From positions 4,916 to 68,915 of the forward strand of contig JAXDGL010000014.1 of the NCBI GenBank assembly GCA_034665065.1: a DNA stretch of 64,000 nucleotides, written 5' to 3'. This DNA is from Thermoanaerobaculia bacterium (GTDB taxonomy: Bacteria; Acidobacteriota; Thermoanaerobaculia; Gp7-AA8). The notes beneath the pieces were generated by a model. It had not been told where the DNA came from. It worked only from the letters and a program-made list of their open reading frames with translations, and ran no database searches. This document shows positions 3,791 to 9,042 of this stretch, piece after piece; within the stretch, counting starts at the first letter, position 1, and each line of letters opens with the position of its first letter. Position numbers and translations under genes: made by a program.

Positions 3791-3932
3791 GCTGGACGCT
3801 GGTTCCGACCGGCGGCTTATTCTCGCATGTAACGGCGCGCTCTCCCGATTCGTCTAGAACGTGGGACGCACCAACCGGGTAAGGGCCTTTGTCCGCAACG
3901 TCCGGCATCTCACTATCATCGGAGCACACTTC

Positions 3933-5642
3933 GTGAAACGACTTCGCTTCACTCGCGCTACCTCGGCCATCCTCATCGCCGCTTTCACCGTTGGACCTCT
4001 TGCCGCACAGCAGAAGAGTCCCCAAACACCCGCGGAACAGCCCAAGCTCGTCGAGAACATTGACGTGCACGTGATCGGCGTCGACGTCGTCGTCACGGAC
4101 AGGAAGGGCAATCCGATCACCGGTCTGACGAAAGACGATTTCCGGATTTTCGAGAACGGCCAGGAAAAATCGATCTCGAATTTCTATGAGATCGACGGAA
4201 AGACCGCCAAACCGGCCATTCCCGTGACCGTGCCTGGAGCTACGCCAGCGCTGCCGGCAACGGCCCCCGCGCCGAGAGAAGAAGTCAACGAACAACTGCG
4301 CCGCCGCATCATTTTCTATATCGACAACCTCTCGCTGGCGCCCTTCAACCGCAACCGCGTCTTCAAGCAGATGAAGGAGTTCGTCCAGAACGTCATGCGT
4401 CCCGGCGACGAGGCTATGGTGGCGACGTACAACCGCAGCCTCAAGATCCGCGTGCCCTTTACGCGCGACGCCGTACAGATCCAGCAAACGCTTGATTCCA
4501 TCGCCGGTGAATCCGCCCTCGGAACATCCAACCGCAGCGAAGTCAAAGACGTCATCGGCCGCATTCGCGACGCCTCGACCTACGATGATGCGGTTTCCAC
4601 AGCCCGCTCCTACGCGCAATCCGTCGACCATGACCTGCGGCAGAGCGTCGAGTCGATCAACGGGCTTCTGACGACACTTGCCGGCGTCGAGGGGAAAAAA
4701 CTTCTCGTACTCACGACGGAAGGCTTTCAGATCCAGCCGGGACGCGAAGTCTTCACGATGATCGATGAAGTATCGCGCGAGAAAGGGTGGCAATCGAGCG
4801 CGATGCTCGAAGCGATGTCGTTCAACGGCAACTCGCTGATCGAGTCCATCGCCAAGACCGCGAACGCCAACGGCATCACGCTCTACGCGATCCATGCGGG
4901 CGGCCTGGCAGCAGGCGGCGAAGGGATGACCGCCGACAACCAGCAGGCCATTTCCTACAACGTCACGTCTGCTGCGCTATCGAACACCACGGAATCGCTC
5001 CAGATCCTGGCCGAGCTCACCGGCGGCCTGGCAACATCGCGCACGAACAATTTCGCCGGCGCGTTCAAGAACATCGAGCGCGATCTCGATTCCTACTACT
5101 CCCTCGGATATCGCGCCGGAACCGAGCGCGTCGATCGCCAGCGTACGCTCGAGGTGCGCGTCAAGAACAAAGCGTGGAACGTCCGCAACCGTCAGACATT
5201 CGTCGAGAAGTCGACGTTCCAGGACATGAGCGACCGCGTCATCGCCAATCTGCTTTACCGCACAAAGGCGAACGACCTCGGCGTGCGCGTCGTGGTGAAA
5301 GAGCCGACTCCGGCCGACGAGCTTTTCAAGATCCCGGTGGAAGTGCAGATCCCGGTCGACAACCTCACGCTCATCCAGCAGGGCGAAGCCTACATGGGCG
5401 GATTCTCGATCTACGTCGTCGTCGGCAACAAGGATGGCGACATGTCGGACGTCTCCCGCAAGTCGCACCAGATCACGATCCCGGTCAGCGATTTTCCGAA
5501 GACCAAAGGCAAGTACTACACGTACACGCTCGACCTGATGTGCGAGCGCGGACTGAACAAGATCTCGATCGGTGTCGTCGACGATGTCTCGAACATCAGC
5601 GGCTTCGACCGGCAGCAAGTGATCGCGCAGGATCTTCGATAG
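3933..5642 (+). CDS. Secreted VWA-domain protein of the acidobacterial VWFA-related type
   Basis: Probable GTG start at codon 25 of track ORF 3861..5642, preceded by GGAG. It has a signal peptide (KRLRFTRATSAILIAAFTVGPLAAQQ) and the family-typical block VDVVVTDRKGNPITGLTKDDFRIFENGQEKSISNF, followed by a VWA-like core. Confidence 0.8.
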   Translation: MKRLRFTRATSAILIAAFTVGPLAAQQKSPQTPAEQPKLVENIDVHVIGVDVVVTDRKGNPITGLTKDDFRIFENGQEKSISNFYEIDGKTAKPAIPVTVPGATPALPATAPAPREEVNEQLRRRIIFYIDNLSLAPFNRNRVFKQMKEFVQNVMRPGDEAMVATYNRSLKIRVPFTRDAVQIQQTLDSIAGESALGTSNRSEVKDVIGRIRDASTYDDAVSTARSYAQSVDHDLRQSVESINGLLTTLAGVEGKKLLVLTTEGFQIQPGREVFTMIDEVSREKGWQSSAMLEAMSFNGNSLIESIAKTANANGITLYAIHAGGLAAGGEGMTADNQQAISYNVTSAALSNTTESLQILAELTGGLATSRTNNFAGAFKNIERDLDSYYSLGYRAGTERVDRQRTLEVRVKNKAWNVRNRQTFVEKSTFQDMSDRVIANLLYRTKANDLGVRVVVKEPTPADELFKIPVEVQIPVDNLTLIQQGEAYMGGFSIYVVVGNKDGDMSDVSRKSHQITIPVSDFPKTKGKYYTYTLDLMCERGLNKISIGVVDDVSNISGFDRQQVIAQDLR

Positions 5643-5707
5643 GATCGCGGCTCCACATGCGGTAGAGGTTTGGCACGACTTCGCGGTTTCCGAGGTAGCC
5701 TCGGGAT

Positions 5708-5935
5708 GTGAAGTTGCTCAACAAACACAAGTCGCTTCTCGCTGAACGCTTCGGAGAAGCAGCGCGCGAGAGTGCGATTCTTTGGTTCGTCTTTTCGGCG
5801 CTTGATGCTTTGGTCAGCCGAGGGTTGACGTTCACATGGTTCCTGTCGAACACATCCGGCGCTCTTGTAGTTTGGGCATTGGGGATTTACTTTGAGATCG
5901 TAGCTAAGGAGATCGCTGGAAAGGAGGTCGTATGA
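5708..5935 (+). CDS. Small membrane protein (75 aa, about 2 TM helices)
   Basis: GTG start with an upstream GAGG. The sequence is hydrophobic (ILWFVFSALDALV ... ALVVWALGIYFEIVA). Its stop overlaps the ATG of the next micro-ORF in an ATGA arrangement. Confidence 0.45.
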   Translation: MKLLNKHKSLLAERFGEAARESAILWFVFSALDALVSRGLTFTWFLSNTSGALVVWALGIYFEIVAKEIAGKEVV

Positions 5936-6087
5936 ATCCGATGTACTACGGAACTTTCGCGTTTCTTGCGTTCTCCAGCTTTTTCATCATTGGAGGGTTT
6001 TGGGCCATCCACGGTCTGAAAAAGGACAAGCGCGAGCGCGATGCCGCTAACGCAGCGTCAGGATCTCAGTCACGTCCCGCTGAATGA
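5932..6087 (+). CDS. Micro-protein, 51 aa, single TM helix with a basic tail (paralog A)
   Basis: A strong AGGAGG lies 5 nt upstream of the ATG. The product is MNPMYYGTFAFLAFSSFFIIGGFWAIHGLKKDKRERDAANAASGSQSRPAE. It is below the 60-aa cutoff of the track. Confidence 0.5.
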   Translation: MNPMYYGTFAFLAFSSFFIIGGFWAIHGLKKDKRERDAANAASGSQSRPAE

Positions 6088-6210
6088 ATCGCTCTTTTGT
6101 TATTTTGGCGTGCAATGACGATCCGGCCGAAGGAGCACTCATGAGTCCACACGCAATTCCAGCGGTAATGGTCCTGTCGTTTGTTACTCCGCTCTTCGCC
6201 GTACGCGACC

Positions 6211-6351
6211 TTGCCATTCGTCATGTTCGGCAGTTTTCTATTCGTCGCAGGTTTGTGGTCGATTCATAAGATCCGGAGGGAGGAAGCCCAAAAGCGCCCG
6301 ATCGGGTTCTCTACCGCGGAACCGGAATCTCGTTCACGATCCGCTGAATGA
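6211..6351 (+). CDS. Micro-protein paralog B (about 43-47 aa); start uncertain; its 3' end overlaps the MoxR gene by about 40 nt
   Basis: The frame encodes ..PFVMFGSFLFVAGLWSIHKIRREEAQKRPIGFSTAEPESRSRSAE*, clearly homologous to paralog A (FxSF[FL]..GG[FL]W[AS]IH.[LI][KR][KR][DE] ... SR[PS]AE*). An overlapping alternative frame at 6141..6269 (MSPHAIPAVMVLSFVTPLFAV.., with a GAAGGAG RBS) is also open. A frameshift or dual coding is possible. Confidence 0.35.
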   Translation: MPFVMFGSFLFVAGLWSIHKIRREEAQKRPIGFSTAEPESRSRSAE

Positions 6352-7273
6352 ACCGTTGCTCCGGCGAGCTGTCGGCGCGCAGCAGGCGACGATCCTTCAT
6401 CACGATTCGATGCGATAACACCGGAACTGCCAGCCGCTTCACATCTTCAGGAATCACGAAGTCGCGTCCATTGACCATGGCCAGCGCCTGACACGCTTTG
6501 AAATACGTCAGCGCGCCGCGCGTCGACACGCCCAATGCCGCCTCGGCGTGCGTGCGCGTCGTCTCGATGATTGCCATCAGATAGTCGACCAGCGACTCGT
6601 TCACGTGAATCGTCGACACCTGCGCCTGCAGATCGCGCACTTCCTGCTCGTCGAGAACCGGCTCGAGATGTTCCAGCGCATCCTGTCCTCCTCCCGACCG
6701 GAGAAGCTTCTTCTCGTCAGTTGGATTCGGATAGCCGATCGTCAGCTTCATCAGGAAGCGGTCGAGTTGCGACTCGGGCAGCGGATAGGTGCCGACGTGC
6801 TCGATTGGATTCTGCGTCGCAAGCACCATGAACGGATCAGGAAGCGGCAATCGCTTTTTTTCGATCGAGATCATCCCCTCGCTCATCGCTTCCAGCAACG
6901 CCGACTGCGACTTCGGCGTCGCGCGATTGATCTCATCCGCGAGGAGCACGTTCGTGAACACAGGACCGGAGATGAACTCGAACTCCTGCGCATCCTGGTT
7001 GTAGATCGTGACGCCGACGATGTCCGCGGGCAGCAAGTCGCTCGTGAACTGGATGCGCTGAAACGACAGCGACAGCGAGCGGGCTAACGCGTGCGCAAGC
7101 ATCGTCTTGCCGACGCCGGGCACATCTTCGAGGAGGATGTGGCCTTTCGCCAGAAGGGCGGCGATGCACAACTGCACCACCTCGCTCTTGCCGCGGATCA
7201 CGCGCTCGACATTCGCATGGAGAGCGGCGATCTTCTCGAACGTCGGGTGGCGTGTGACCGGTTGCGTCGTCAT
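6311..7273 (-). CDS. MoxR-family AAA+ ATPase
   Basis: Walker A (DVPGVGKT), Walker B (LLADEINRA) and the ATQNPIE..GTYPLPESQLDRF sensor region are present. Confidence 0.9.
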   Translation of the reverse strand: MTTQPVTRHPTFEKIAALHANVERVIRGKSEVVQLCIAALLAKGHILLEDVPGVGKTMLAHALARSLSLSFQRIQFTSDLLPADIVGVTIYNQDAQEFEFISGPVFTNVLLADEINRATPKSQSALLEAMSEGMISIEKKRLPLPDPFMVLATQNPIEHVGTYPLPESQLDRFLMKLTIGYPNPTDEKKLLRSGGGQDALEHLEPVLDEQEVRDLQAQVSTIHVNESLVDYLMAIIETTRTHAEAALGVSTRGALTYFKACQALAMVNGRDFVIPEDVKRLAVPVLSHRIVMKDRRLLRADSSPEQRFIQRIVNEIPVPR

Positions 7274-7338: not shown

Positions 7339-9042
7339 TCACAACTTCTTGAAGTGCGGCCCACCCCCACCTTCCGGCGGAACCCACGTGATGACCTGAT
7401 ACGGATCCATGATGTCGCACGTTTTGCAGTGAAAGCAGTTCGTGAAATTGAGGAATGGCACTTTCCCGCGGCCATCGGCGGTCGGCTGCGGCTCGTAGAC
7501 CTGCGCCGGACAGAAGTGAAAGCAGGGATTGCCGAACTCCTCGGTGCAGCGCGTGATGCAGACTTCGGTGTCGGCGATCAAAAGATGCGCCGGTTGGTTC
7601 TCTTCGTGAATGACGCCGCCGTTATAAACGTCGGTGACTTTGTCGAACGTAAGCACGCCGTCGAACTTCATCTTCTCCGGCGGATGCGGATGATCAGCTC
7701 CGAAGTAACGCTGGATGCGCTCCATCCGCTCGTGACCAGCATGTCCTTCGAGACGGTTCATGGCGCCGTAGCCGCGGCCGCCCGTCACGATACTGAGGCC
7801 CGCGTTGACCAATCCCGCGAGCTGCCCGTATTCGAACGCCTGATGGAAATTGCGCTCTTTCCAGAGCTCTTCGCGCGCCCATGACGCTTCGAATATCGCT
7901 TCGTATTCGCTCAGTTGCGCGGTCGAGTAATCCTCGTTGAGGAGCGCATGAAACGCCGACTCCGCGGCCATCGATCCCGACTTGATGCCCAAGTGAATAC
8001 CTTTGAGACGTGCGCCATTGAGGTAGCCGGCGGAATCACCGGCGATGAGAAACCCTGGACCGTACGCGCGCGGCATCGAGAAGTAGCCGCCTTCAGGAAT
8101 CGCTTTGGCGCCGGCGCTGATCATCTTGCCGCCTTCGAGCAGCGGCCGGATCGAGGGATGCGTCTTGTAACGTTGAAACTCGTGATGCGGATCGAGCGTG
8201 GGATCTTTGTAATCGAGACCGACGACGAGTCCGATATCGACGATGCGATCCTTCATCCCGTAGATGAAACCGCCGCCGAATGTGTCGCCGTCGAGCGGCC
8301 AGCCGAGCGTATGAATCACGTTGCCGAGCGGAAAACGATCGTCGGGGAGTTGCCACAGCTCTTTCACGCCGACGGAGTACACCTGCGGATTCTTCCCCGC
8401 ATACAGATCGAAAAGGCTGGCCAGTTGTTTCGTGAGCGTGCCGCGCGGACCTTCGGCAAGAATCGTGACCTTGGCGCGGATGTCGACGCCCGGCTCGAAA
8501 TTCGGCTTCGGCTGCCCGTTCTTGTCGATCCCTTTGTCGCCGGTGCGGACGCCGACGACGCGACCTTCCTCGACCAGCACACGTGACGCCGCAAACTCCG
8601 CGAAGAGATCGACGCCCATTTCGCCAACGATCGGCGCCATCCATCGAACGAATTCTCCGAGCGAGATGACGTAGTTGCCGTGGTTCTGCAGCGGTGGCGG
8701 CATAATCGGGGCCGCGATCTTCATGTTCTCGAAGAGGTACCAGAAGCCGTCGTCGGTGACGGGCGACTCGATCGGGCAACCGCGCTCGAGCCAGTCGGGC
8801 ATCAGCTCGGCGATGCCGCGCGGATCCATAACCGCACCGGAGATGCCGTGCGAGCCGATCTCCTGCCCCTTTTCGAGCACCGCGATCGACAGACCTTCCA
8901 GCTTCTTTTCGGCGCTCGACTCGTTGTGCGCTTTCACCAGTTCGGCGAGGCGGTACGCCGCGGCCAGGCCGGCAGGTCCCGCACCGACGATCACCACATC
9001 GACTTCGAGGGTCTCCCGCTCGATGCCGGGAAGTTCAGCCAT
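7339..9042 (-). CDS. Electron-transfer flavoprotein:ubiquinone oxidoreductase (ETF-QO/FixC-like, with a C-terminal 4Fe-4S ferredoxin-like domain)
   Basis: FAD-binding N-terminus (VDVVIVGAGPAGLAAA) and a C-terminal Cys cluster (CITRCTEEFGNPCFHFCPAQVY ... CFHCKTCD) typical of ETF-QO. Confidence 0.9.
   Translation of the reverse strand: MAELPGIERETLEVDVVIVGAGPAGLAAAYRLAELVKAHNESSAEKKLEGLSIAVLEKGQEIGSHGISGAVMDPRGIAELMPDWLERGCPIESPVTDDGFWYLFENMKIAAPIMPPPLQNHGNYVISLGEFVRWMAPIVGEMGVDLFAEFAASRVLVEEGRVVGVRTGDKGIDKNGQPKPNFEPGVDIRAKVTILAEGPRGTLTKQLASLFDLYAGKNPQVYSVGVKELWQLPDDRFPLGNVIHTLGWPLDGDTFGGGFIYGMKDRIVDIGLVVGLDYKDPTLDPHHEFQRYKTHPSIRPLLEGGKMISAGAKAIPEGGYFSMPRAYGPGFLIAGDSAGYLNGARLKGIHLGIKSGSMAAESAFHALLNEDYSTAQLSEYEAIFEASWAREELWKERNFHQAFEYGQLAGLVNAGLSIVTGGRGYGAMNRLEGHAGHERMERIQRYFGADHPHPPEKMKFDGVLTFDKVTDVYNGGVIHEENQPAHLLIADTEVCITRCTEEFGNPCFHFCPAQVYEPQPTADGRGKVPFLNFTNCFHCKTCDIMDPYQVITWVPPEGGGGPHFKKL

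Follow-up and report, generated by a model that had tools for sequence, protein, structure and literature searches.

Introduction

Small membrane-protein operons, tandem arrays of paralogs and antisense gene overlaps are all known, and the locus described here combines these parts in an unusual manner. It lies at positions 5652-6351 of a 64,000-nucleotide (nt) stretch of DNA from a Thermoanaerobaculia bacterium (phylum Acidobacteriota; GenBank assembly GCA_034665065.1, contig JAXDGL010000014.1, positions 4,916 to 68,915 of the forward strand); this whole stretch is referred to as the window, and all coordinates are those of the window. Positions 5652-6351 are a self-contained operon of small genes on the plus strand, hereafter the cassette, which stands tail-to-tail with moxR and encodes a two-helix membrane protein (orf75) followed by tandem copies of a single-pass membrane protein. 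Overall, the cassette is likely to represent a translationally coupled operon of membrane micro-proteins in which the single-pass gene took its tail from the antisense strand of moxR and was then amplified, the second copy in the window being a dead hybrid of two paralogs, and the products are proposed to act as a complex. The odd second copy is less remarkable than the rest of the locus; the unusual parts are the overprinted tail, which was exported from the overlap by duplication, and the nesting of the cassette in another operon.

Several described systems share features with this locus. Toxins of type I toxin-antitoxin (TA) systems (the Hok, Ldr, Ibs and TxpA/BsrG class) are likewise hydrophobic peptides of <60-90 amino acids (aa) with a single transmembrane (TM) segment and charged tails, often encoded as tandem paralogs and with a convergent transcript that overlaps at the 3' end. 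The CcoQ/FixQ, OAD gamma-chain and CydX-like subunits have the same architecture as the single-pass proteins, namely one TM helix behind a short N-terminus, followed by a basic juxtamembrane cluster and a disordered tail, and the c subunits of F/V-ATPases are, like orf75, two-helix membrane hairpins of ~70 aa whose second helix carries a conserved carboxylate. As in antisense tail-to-tail overlaps of bacterial genes, 41 nt are common to opposite-strand genes at the locus, both readings are constrained, and the younger reading (the tail of the small open reading frame, ORF) derives from the older one (the MoxR C-terminus). Finally, as in MoxR-DUF58-TgpA operons, the neighbouring gene encodes a bona fide AAA_3 MoxR, and in relatives it heads such an operon with the cassette nested inside.

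Two families of membrane micro-proteins

The window was compared with related loci (labelled L001 and so on), including 79 genome loci from a MoxR-based genome scan, nearly all of which are Thermoanaerobaculia/Acidobacteriota metagenome-assembled genomes (MAGs). The cassette is carried by 20 of these 79 loci and by 37 metagenome contigs that were recovered independently by means of a DNA motif. In total, 42 unique arrays were compared, namely 34 from the near clade and 8 divergent cassettes from a distant group, which the family hidden Markov model (HMM) matches partly or not at all.

At homologous loci in relatives, the reading frames of orf75 and of the first single-pass gene (copy 1) are conserved, with ratios of nonsynonymous to synonymous substitution rates (dN/dS) of 0.04-0.3. 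For the core of the single-pass protein (32-38 codons outside the moxR overlap), dN/dS was 0.04-0.2 in many ortholog pairs and 0.09 when pooled over 19 disjoint pairs (Fisher p=6e-58); copy 1 gave 0.11 against L004, and orf75 gave 0.08-0.3 against its orthologs. Differences in linker length among orthologs are whole codons, and an ATG start is found in 33 of 34 first copies and 33 of 34 later copies (66/68 intact copies). Copy 1 is preceded by AGGAGG at 5922-5927, and its ATG overlaps the stop codon of orf75 (ATGA). This 4-nt overlap is shared by 27 of 34 arrays, in which an AAGGAG embedded in the 3' end of orf75 precedes the start by 6-8 nt, and the later copies are either tightly coupled (-8 to +10 nt) or carry an AAGGAG of their own. 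These data indicate that orf75 and copy 1 are genuine conserved genes, and that translation of the single-pass protein is coupled to that of orf75 through the ATGA overlap and its embedded ribosome-binding site (RBS). The initial annotation of the window had described a translationally coupled string of micro-ORFs encoding TM micro-proteins, including a 51-aa ORF with a perfect AGGAGG RBS. Every feature that it listed was found where it had been placed, and purifying selection against orthologs argues that the micro-ORFs are real, conserved and coding. The cassette and its flanking genes are as follows.

5652-5707, plus strand: upstream non-coding element, nearly invariant across the 42 unique arrays
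5708-5935, plus strand: orf75, two-helix membrane protein of 75 aa with a GTG start, identified by dN/dS, protein clusters and an AlphaFold2 model
5932-6087, plus strand: copy 1, intact single-TM protein of 51 aa, identified by dN/dS, ATGA coupling and TM prediction
6047-6095, plus strand: tail of copy 1 and a few nt past its stop, a relic of the moxR 3' end, the antisense reading of which resembles the MoxR C-terminus
6311-6351 (41 nt), both strands: antisense overlap of the terminal small ORF (plus) with the last 13 codons and the stop of moxR (minus), as given by the coordinates
6311-7273, minus strand: moxR (AAA_3 ATPase), convergent to the cassette; Pfam AAA_3 PF07726 (E=1e-62) and AAA_lid_2 PF17863 (E=3e-22)
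3861-5642, plus strand: VWA-type gene; TIGR03436 acidobact_VWFA match (E=2e-55)

High-GC DNA makes many spurious ORFs, and the ORFs of the cassette match no known protein family; it could therefore be argued that they are chance open frames in a GC-rich intergenic and 3' moxR region, and that their similarity is that of a non-coding DNA repeat. This view is hardly credible and is effectively refuted by the low pooled dN/dS of the core, by the conservation of starts, RBSs and coupling together with indels that keep the frame, and by the 88 and 55 protein clusters that the two families form in public data. Furthermore, the GC content of the small-gene region (0.54) is below that of the window (0.61), and an Rfam search of 5000-7000 at E<=1 returned no RNA family. 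A repeat finder run on 5600-6450 returned short fragments only, as DNA divergence between the paralogs is too great.

Copy 1 has the layout MNPMYYGT - TM - GGFWAIHG - KKDKRERD - linker - SQSRPAE, with a single predicted TM segment at residues 7-27 and 5 K/R within the next 12 residues. Across the family, the recurrent motifs are an N-terminal NPMYYGT, an aromatic TM helix, W-x-x-H, a K/R cluster, a variable linker and a PESRSRSAE tail. The predicted topology is that of a single-pass protein with a short N-terminus outside, the aromatic TM helix, the basic cluster inside, a flexible linker and a Ser/Arg/Glu tail. The family comprises 88 clusters at 90% identity in protein databases, with lengths of 44-87 aa. 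The orf75 family comprises fifteen clusters at 90% identity, and 55 clusters at 50% identity were found among 1.84 billion representatives; its invariant core is LLWFVFSALDAL, and the polar residues D33, N48 and E63 are conserved within the helices. The AlphaFold2 model of orf75 is a helical hairpin (helices 2-36 and 42-74, pLDDT 81.6).

Database entries for both families are small and unnamed ("hypothetical") apart from stray labels, one of which, in a public source, calls a single-pass member "cbb3-type cytochrome oxidase subunit 3". Searches of orf75 and four single-pass variants against Pfam, NCBIfam, PADLOC and PHROGs gave nothing significant, and a Pfam search with all 89 single-pass members gave only sub-threshold noise of the TM type (OAD_gamma, Ost5, FixQ). 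The CcoQ/FixQ model (PF05545) matched 1 of the 89 members at E=0.25 and the OAD gamma-chain model (PF04277) matched 9 weakly (best E=0.0013), the window protein being matched by neither; the gene does not lie in a ccoNOQP operon, and decarboxylase genes are absent nearby. The cassette thus differs from these systems in that no cco, oad or cyd genes are found nearby and in that the partner is a 70-aa two-TM protein of a family of its own. Comparison of the orf75 model with the PDB by Foldseek returned generic helical hairpins only, all at E>1. Although TM-scores against F/V-ATPase c subunits were 0.64-0.72, this likeness is that of any helical hairpin, and orf75 is not a c subunit as judged by a PF00137 match and atp operon context, since it has neither the match nor atp genes nearby. 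Viral contigs searched with the orf75 profile gave no match, and thus no connection to phages. Taken together, these data indicate that orf75 and the single-pass proteins form two families of membrane micro-proteins that belong to no described family, and both can now be annotated in Acidobacteriota genomes with clear gene models.

Overlap with moxR and origin of the tail

The terminal copy reaches ~35-41 nt into moxR at all loci that carry the cassette. Read antisense, the C-terminal codons of MoxR, which end in FIQRIVNEIPVPR followed by the stop, supply the last 13 codons of this copy, whose tail (...PESRSRSAE) is near-invariant. The extension of the second copy by about 40 nt into the antisense 3' end of moxR, as initially annotated, was borne out by the coordinates. 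The MoxR C-terminus, F[IV]xR[IV][IV]xE[IV]PVPR, is conserved in cassette-free loci too, and wobble positions of moxR were used to compare the two kinds of locus. Among 39 cassette-bearing loci, wobble entropy was 0.44 in the 13 overlapped codons versus 0.85 in the preceding 47 (p=0.002); among 46 cassette-free loci it was 1.21 in the last 13 codons versus 1.05 in the preceding 47 (p=0.87), although it counts against this contrast that cassette-bearing loci are mutually closer than cassette-free ones, for which the within-gene comparison controls only partly. These data indicate that both reading frames are constrained in the overlap, as in an antisense overlapping gene pair.

Distant homologs of the two-gene module keep the pair, and have neither a moxR neighbour nor the ...ESRSRSAE tail. 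It follows that the tail arose when the small ORF was extended into moxR (overprinting), and the age order of the two readings is demonstrable, that of MoxR being the older and that of the small-ORF tail the younger.

Traces of moxR are also seen in copies that lie outside the overlap. The segment at 6047-6095 in the window, when read antisense, gives ERFIQRDVTEILTLR and a stop, versus EQRFIQRIVNEIPVPR and a stop in MoxR, and in L004 and L010 the duplicated unit retains >=24 nt of moxR sequence past the stop of the small ORF. In 21 non-terminal copies, the entropy of the tail by codon position was 0.90/0.81/1.40, so that variation falls mostly at position 3 of the small-ORF frame, and the pooled dN/dS of the non-terminal tail was 0.47 (p=2e-4). 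Because the free, non-terminal copies keep the tail under constraint, we conclude that the overprinted peptide was copied out by tandem duplication and retained by selection. The initial annotation had taken the C-terminal motif shared by the two copies as a sign of selection; this reading stands for the non-overlapping copies, in which the tail is selected, but not for the terminal copy, in which the motif is dictated by the antisense moxR codons.

This is where the locus departs from other antisense overlaps, as the overprinted segment was here duplicated out of the overlap and persists under selection as the tail of free-standing paralogs. The locus thus provides a clean natural example of new protein sequence, in the form of an antisense-born tail that left its overlap by duplication and was kept by selection. 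The literature searches covered Thermoanaerobaculia small proteins and MoxR small membrane proteins and returned nothing relevant to either; a route of overprinting followed by duplication was not found in them, none of the searches having been aimed at overprinting.

On either strand, the overlap region folded as RNA no better than shuffled sequence, and the folding therefore gives no evidence for a terminator or a structured antisense element in the overlap. The overlap between the cassette and moxR transcripts is probably longer than 41 nt.

The second copy in the window

The ORF that ends at 6351, here called the frame-1 ORF, was initially annotated as a paralog of the 51-aa protein, and this relationship is well supported. 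BLASTP of copy 1 against the frame-1 ORF gave E=9e-11 (37% identity over 49 aa), and a six-frame scan of the 64 kb with the family HMM gave E=4e-31 for copy 1 and E=5e-25 for the frame-1 ORF, with the best noise at E=0.06. The accompanying claim that the codons of the two copies diverge mainly at synonymous positions holds per site (pS=0.70 and pN=0.36, the proportions of synonymous and nonsynonymous differences over 32 aligned codons, tail excluded) but not in absolute counts (27 nonsynonymous versus 15 synonymous changes); because synonymous sites are saturated and nonsynonymous changes outnumber synonymous ones, the window pair alone is weak evidence for selection. The further claim of purifying selection on both copies does not extend to the second copy as it stands in the window, which is made up of parts of different paralog types joined out of frame. 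The parts of this region are as follows.

6114-6202, plus strand: head of the F/epsilon type, with AAGGAG at 6130-6135, ATG at 6141 and 20 codons; 87-90% identity to relatives
6141-6269, plus strand: ORF of 42 aa in the other frame (frame 0), with its stop at 6267-6269, preceded by the same AAGGAG
6201-6202, plus strand: putative recombination junction with GT microhomology, from a three-way alignment
6201-6351, plus strand: body of the G/delta type, from codon 6 to the stop; identity to L003, L100 and L107, and without an ATG or RBS of its own

The frame-1 ORF has no ATG near a family-like start, and its frame is open from 6169 to 6351 (60 codons). The family HMM covers its positions 1-30 (really 1-21) in frame 0 and 6-54 in frame 1, meaning that the two segments overlap on the model and do not abut. 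The head (MSPHAIPAVMVLSFVTPLFA) is 90% identical to L002, 89% to L098 and 87% to L001, and this homology ends at 6202-6203; the same head type is intact (57-59 aa) in L002, L098 and L179-L181, and past the junction the head ORF of the window runs out of the family frame. The body (YATLPFVMFGSFLFVAGLWSIHKIRREE...PESRSRSAE and stop) is 97% identical to L003, L100 and L107 over its first 30 nt and ~87% identical to L003 through the stop. At the junction the two parents share GT alone, which occupies codon positions 1-2 in the head type and positions 3 and 1 in the body type, and this difference in codon phase puts the join out of frame. L179-L181, which are the closest relatives (86% nt identity), carry orf75, a B copy, an intact F copy and a terminal A copy, and their homology with the window is lost at 6199; the junction itself is absent from all other arrays examined.

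These data indicate that the second copy is most likely a deletion-derived hybrid pseudogene of two paralog types. In the simplest history, a parent array of B, F and terminal G copies would have undergone a deletion of ~140-200 nt that fused codon 20 of F to codon 6 of G. This would have left the 42-aa ORF in frame 0, with a TM-like head and a fortuitously basic tail, and a body lacking both promoter and RBS, the last 41 nt of which would be kept only as moxR sequence. The initial annotation had offered a frameshift, dual coding or a decaying duplicate as explanations, and of these the decaying duplicate fits, whereas a single-base indel and dual coding do not. The second copy is thus better annotated as a recombinant pseudogene than repaired as a frameshift.

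Some observations do weigh against complete loss of the second copy. The frame-1 ORF is still open over its 60 codons and has a dN/dS of 0.28 against copy 1 of L003, making residual function from a non-ATG start conceivable, and the 42-aa peptide predicted from the head ORF retains the look of a TM segment followed by a basic tail. On this basis, the second copy could work by a programmed +1 frameshift from the ORF at 6141 or from an internal non-ATG start (TTG at 6181 or 6211), yielding a frame-1 product of 46-69 aa that contains GLWSIHKIRREE. From TTG 6181, the open frame would include the full TM segment, the basic cluster and the tail, and the strong RBS and ATG at 6141 would load ribosomes onto the region. 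We nevertheless regard a working second copy as improbable. The two-frame layout is unique to the window, whereas the orthologs of the head (L002, L098, L179-L181) and of the body (L003, L100, L107) are single-frame, and the overlap of the two frames on the family model means that a fused product would contain a 40-aa hydrophobic stretch unlike any of the ~90 family members. Furthermore, the TTG codons, which are the only in-frame starts upstream of the body, both lack a Shine-Dalgarno (SD) sequence and contrast with the ATG starts of nearly all intact copies; ATG 6223 lies inside the TM segment and its use would remove it; and the low dN/dS mostly reflects divergence that preceded the fusion. 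A programmed frameshift gene was rejected because the layout is not conserved and because the frames are not colinear with the family, the TM region being partially duplicated. Dual coding of the frame at 6141-6269 was likewise rejected: the same alternative frame is open in the intact copy of L003, owing to the sequence type, and its openness therefore carries no meaning.

The hybrid could also be a sequencing or assembly artefact, that is, a chimeric join of paralogs or strains or a miscalled base in a genome with intact copies. The window probably comes from a MAG, which counts against taking the join at face value, the related records are almost all MAGs, and strain variation in tandem arrays of paralogs invites misassembly; disrupted terminal copies are seen in other MAGs too. 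Such an error is about as improbable as a working second copy. The problem is not one of a single base, as each flank is of a different paralog type and, by comparison with a two-copy parent, the window lacks ~140-200 nt, and the 2 nt shared by the parents at the junction would be far too little for a k-mer-based chimeric path. In addition, varied degenerate terminal copies in independent arrays are in keeping with real decay.

Turnover of the tandem array

Copy number and copy type vary widely among the arrays. Among the 42 unique arrays, 2 have one intact copy, 16 have two, 7 have three and 1 has four, and in 8 of the 34 near-clade arrays the terminal copy is degenerate through a frameshift, N-terminal loss or reduction to the moxR-constrained tail. 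About nine paralog types are seen repeatedly in different genomes, their order shuffled, and most multi-member types occur at the terminal position. The close relatives L013, L008 and L060 have no cassette. These data indicate birth-and-death evolution of the array, with recombination between conserved heads and tails.

Individual disruptions were also observed. Relative to L002, copy 2 of L001 carries one inserted nt within a T run, and a frameshift midway through copy 3 of L010 puts HMM positions 1-23 in one frame and 23-54 in another; these cases would be explained either by real decay or by homopolymer errors in the assemblies. In L011 (~550-950 of the examined region), an insert between copy 1 and the terminal remnant reads on translation as a reiterated ...SSDVS(L/V)T.SDGSLTSSDVSVNVLG..., which suggests a tandem-repeat expansion inside the array.

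The upstream element

The cassette is preceded by an element of ~56 nt with the consensus TCCAC-N5-GTAGAGGTTTGCAC-N13-CCGAGGTAGCCTCGG-N3-GTG, which in the 42 unique arrays is more conserved than coding sequence and is kept across three different upstream genes. In the window it contains TCCAC at 5652-5656, GTAGA at 5662-5666, TTGGCAC at 5670-5676 and a perfect palindrome, CCGAGG-TAG-CCTCGG, at 5690-5704, which ends 3 nt before the GTG of orf75. The palindrome occurs once in the window and, in the 79 genome loci, only adjacent to the cassette; no viral contig among those searched carried the pattern. The fold of the element as RNA has a z-score of -2.7. In metagenomes, the palindrome CCGAGG-(T/G)AG-CCTCGG followed by N3-GTGA also stands 3 nt before the GTG starts of unrelated genes (loci L082-L170), including BrnT/DUF497-like toxins, IS91-type transposases, FGE/SUMF1-like proteins, YraN, RadC and an integrase, and TTG is enriched 17-18 nt upstream in these cases (16/48).

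The element is probably a promoter/operator or a start-codon hairpin. From the palindrome region we infer a promoter with a -35 of TTGnnn and a -10 of TAGCCT; as the start codon would lie 6 nt downstream of the predicted -10, the mRNA would be leaderless or near-leaderless, and an operator may overlap the predicted promoter. Alternatively, the palindrome could form a hairpin that sequesters the SD sequence, with GAGG in its 5' arm. The occurrence of the palindrome beyond the cassette looks like that of a shared -10 region for leaderless GTG mRNAs or of a shared operator. Against the promoter reading stand a scan of 5400-6700 for consensus sigma-70 promoters and intrinsic terminators, which returned no promoter and a single terminator-like site, within orf75, and the spacing of 19-20 nt between the -35-like TTG and the -10-like TAGCCT of the cassette, which is longer than canonical.

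Two other readings of the element were rejected. For a sigma-54 promoter, TGGCAC is present in the window only, the relatives having TTGCAC, and the GC element is off by one. As for a longer leader stem that would sequester the GTG, visual inspection of the aligned relatives showed conservation of the 6-bp palindrome only, and not of the pairing around it. One extra G sets the window apart from all relatives at 5670-5676, where it reads TTTGGCAC and they read TTTGCAC; the -35-like TTG thereby lies 1 nt further from the palindrome, which might weaken expression of the cassette in the window.

Genomic context

The moxR neighbour contains both AAA_3 and AAA_lid_2, which identifies the predicted product as a MoxR AAA+ ATPase. 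In 55 of the 79 related genomes, moxR is followed directly by DUF58 (and a TgpA-type transglutaminase). In 5 genomes and one metagenome contig, the cassette lies antisense in the gap between moxR and DUF58 and has a single partner gene, whereas in 15 genomes and the window the cassette is present without DUF58. Neither DUF58 nor TgpA was found at the window locus or anywhere in the 64 kb, which indicates that the window MoxR has lost its usual operon partners. The clade that lacks DUF58-TgpA at the locus is the same clade in which the partner gene is amplified. Compared with MoxR-DUF58-TgpA operons as such, the small genes differ in being on the opposite strand, in being absent from most of these operons (55/79) and in occurring also without MoxR.

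The initial annotation had placed the small genes within a MoxR/VWA pair, a framing that does not survive the comparison: the VWA gene is incidental and is replaced in relatives, and what is conserved is the association with the moxR 3' end, ancestrally with the moxR-DUF58 gap. The upstream neighbour in relatives is a VWA gene, a phosphoribosyltransferase-like gene or DUF58, and a functional link to the VWA gene was rejected for this reason.

Proposed history and function

The two-gene module predates its present location. In one Thermoanaerobaculia lineage, it is found antisense between moxR and DUF58, and there the single-pass gene extends ~40 nt into the moxR 3' end. In the clade of the window, the locus has lost DUF58-TgpA and the single-pass gene has been amplified to 1-4 diverged and shuffled copies, with each duplicated unit carrying the overprinted tail, which is under purifying selection even outside the moxR overlap.

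With regard to function, our best guess, which is offered with lower confidence than the gene models, is a small hetero-oligomeric complex in the inner membrane, built from orf75 and one or more of the single-pass proteins, with the tandem copies as alternative subunits. This complex is preferred because the genes are obligately paired and coupled in all homologs, including distant ones, because specific motifs are strongly conserved both in the helices of orf75 and where the single-pass partner meets the outer leaflet, and because dN/dS is low. In nested loci, the operon transcript is necessarily antisense to the whole cassette, and convergent transcription would make expression of the cassette and of moxR (ancestrally also of DUF58-TgpA) mutually antagonistic; such mutual transcriptional interference is plausible. 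It should be noted, as a point that tells against this account, that the promoter, the leaderless start, the effects of convergent transcription and the formation of the complex are all features that we infer.

A closer tie to MoxR would be that the cassette is no passenger but a functional and regulatory partner of the MoxR system, with the palindrome-controlled promoter and the operon gating each other through convergent transcription and antisense RNA, the micro-proteins acting with MoxR, DUF58 and TgpA at the inner membrane, and the moxR-derived tail being a selected interaction module. We consider this unlikely, though it is the least remote of the alternatives. In either case, a small operon antisense inside the moxR-DUF58-TgpA operon offers a possible handle on the regulation of MoxR and on its role at the membrane.

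The main functional rival is a toxin/immunity system, in which the single-pass peptides are membrane-active toxins (type I-like or leaderless-bacteriocin-like), orf75 confers immunity and the moxR transcript is the antisense regulator. Consistent with this, each peptide is short (44-87 aa) and combines a single TM helix with a charged tail, as is expected of type I toxins; the peptides form tandem, diversified paralogs of variable number that are frequently pseudogenised and patchy among close relatives; their genes overlap a convergent gene in antisense at the 3' end; in metagenomes, BrnT-like toxin genes and transposase genes have the same palindrome ahead of their starts; and two members give faint matches to YxzE-like bacteriocins (E=0.08). 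Type I toxin genes, however, stand alone behind a structured leader, whereas the genes here are coupled through ATGA to a conserved two-TM protein and have strong, exposed RBSs. The strong conservation of the core and of NPMYYGT points to a specific interaction and not to generic membrane damage. No dedicated small antisense RNA gene is evident at the locus, where Rfam gave no match and only the moxR mRNA could overlap (41 nt); nor were an exporter, a protease or other bacteriocin genes found nearby, PADLOC/PHROG matches obtained or viral contigs found. In addition, the distant two-gene modules have one partner only. The toxin/immunity reading is therefore disfavoured, and we rate it as rather less probable than a partnership with MoxR, and behind the preferred membrane complex.

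Other features of the locus

The genes around the cassette are orf75, moxR, ETF-QO, acidobact_VWFA and DapF. The canonical order in relatives is ETF-QO - moxR - DUF58 - TgpA (e.g., L016, L036 and L069), and the window has ETF-QO (7339-9042) and moxR. The terminator-like hairpin inside orf75 (5763-5786) is of a kind that occurs at chance-level frequency and is probably meaningless. Lastly, L007, L009, L012, L014 and L015 have a phosphoribosyltransferase-like gene of 216-221 aa between the VWA gene and the cassette, and its presence in this subset of close relatives marks the upstream flank as a rearrangement hotspot.

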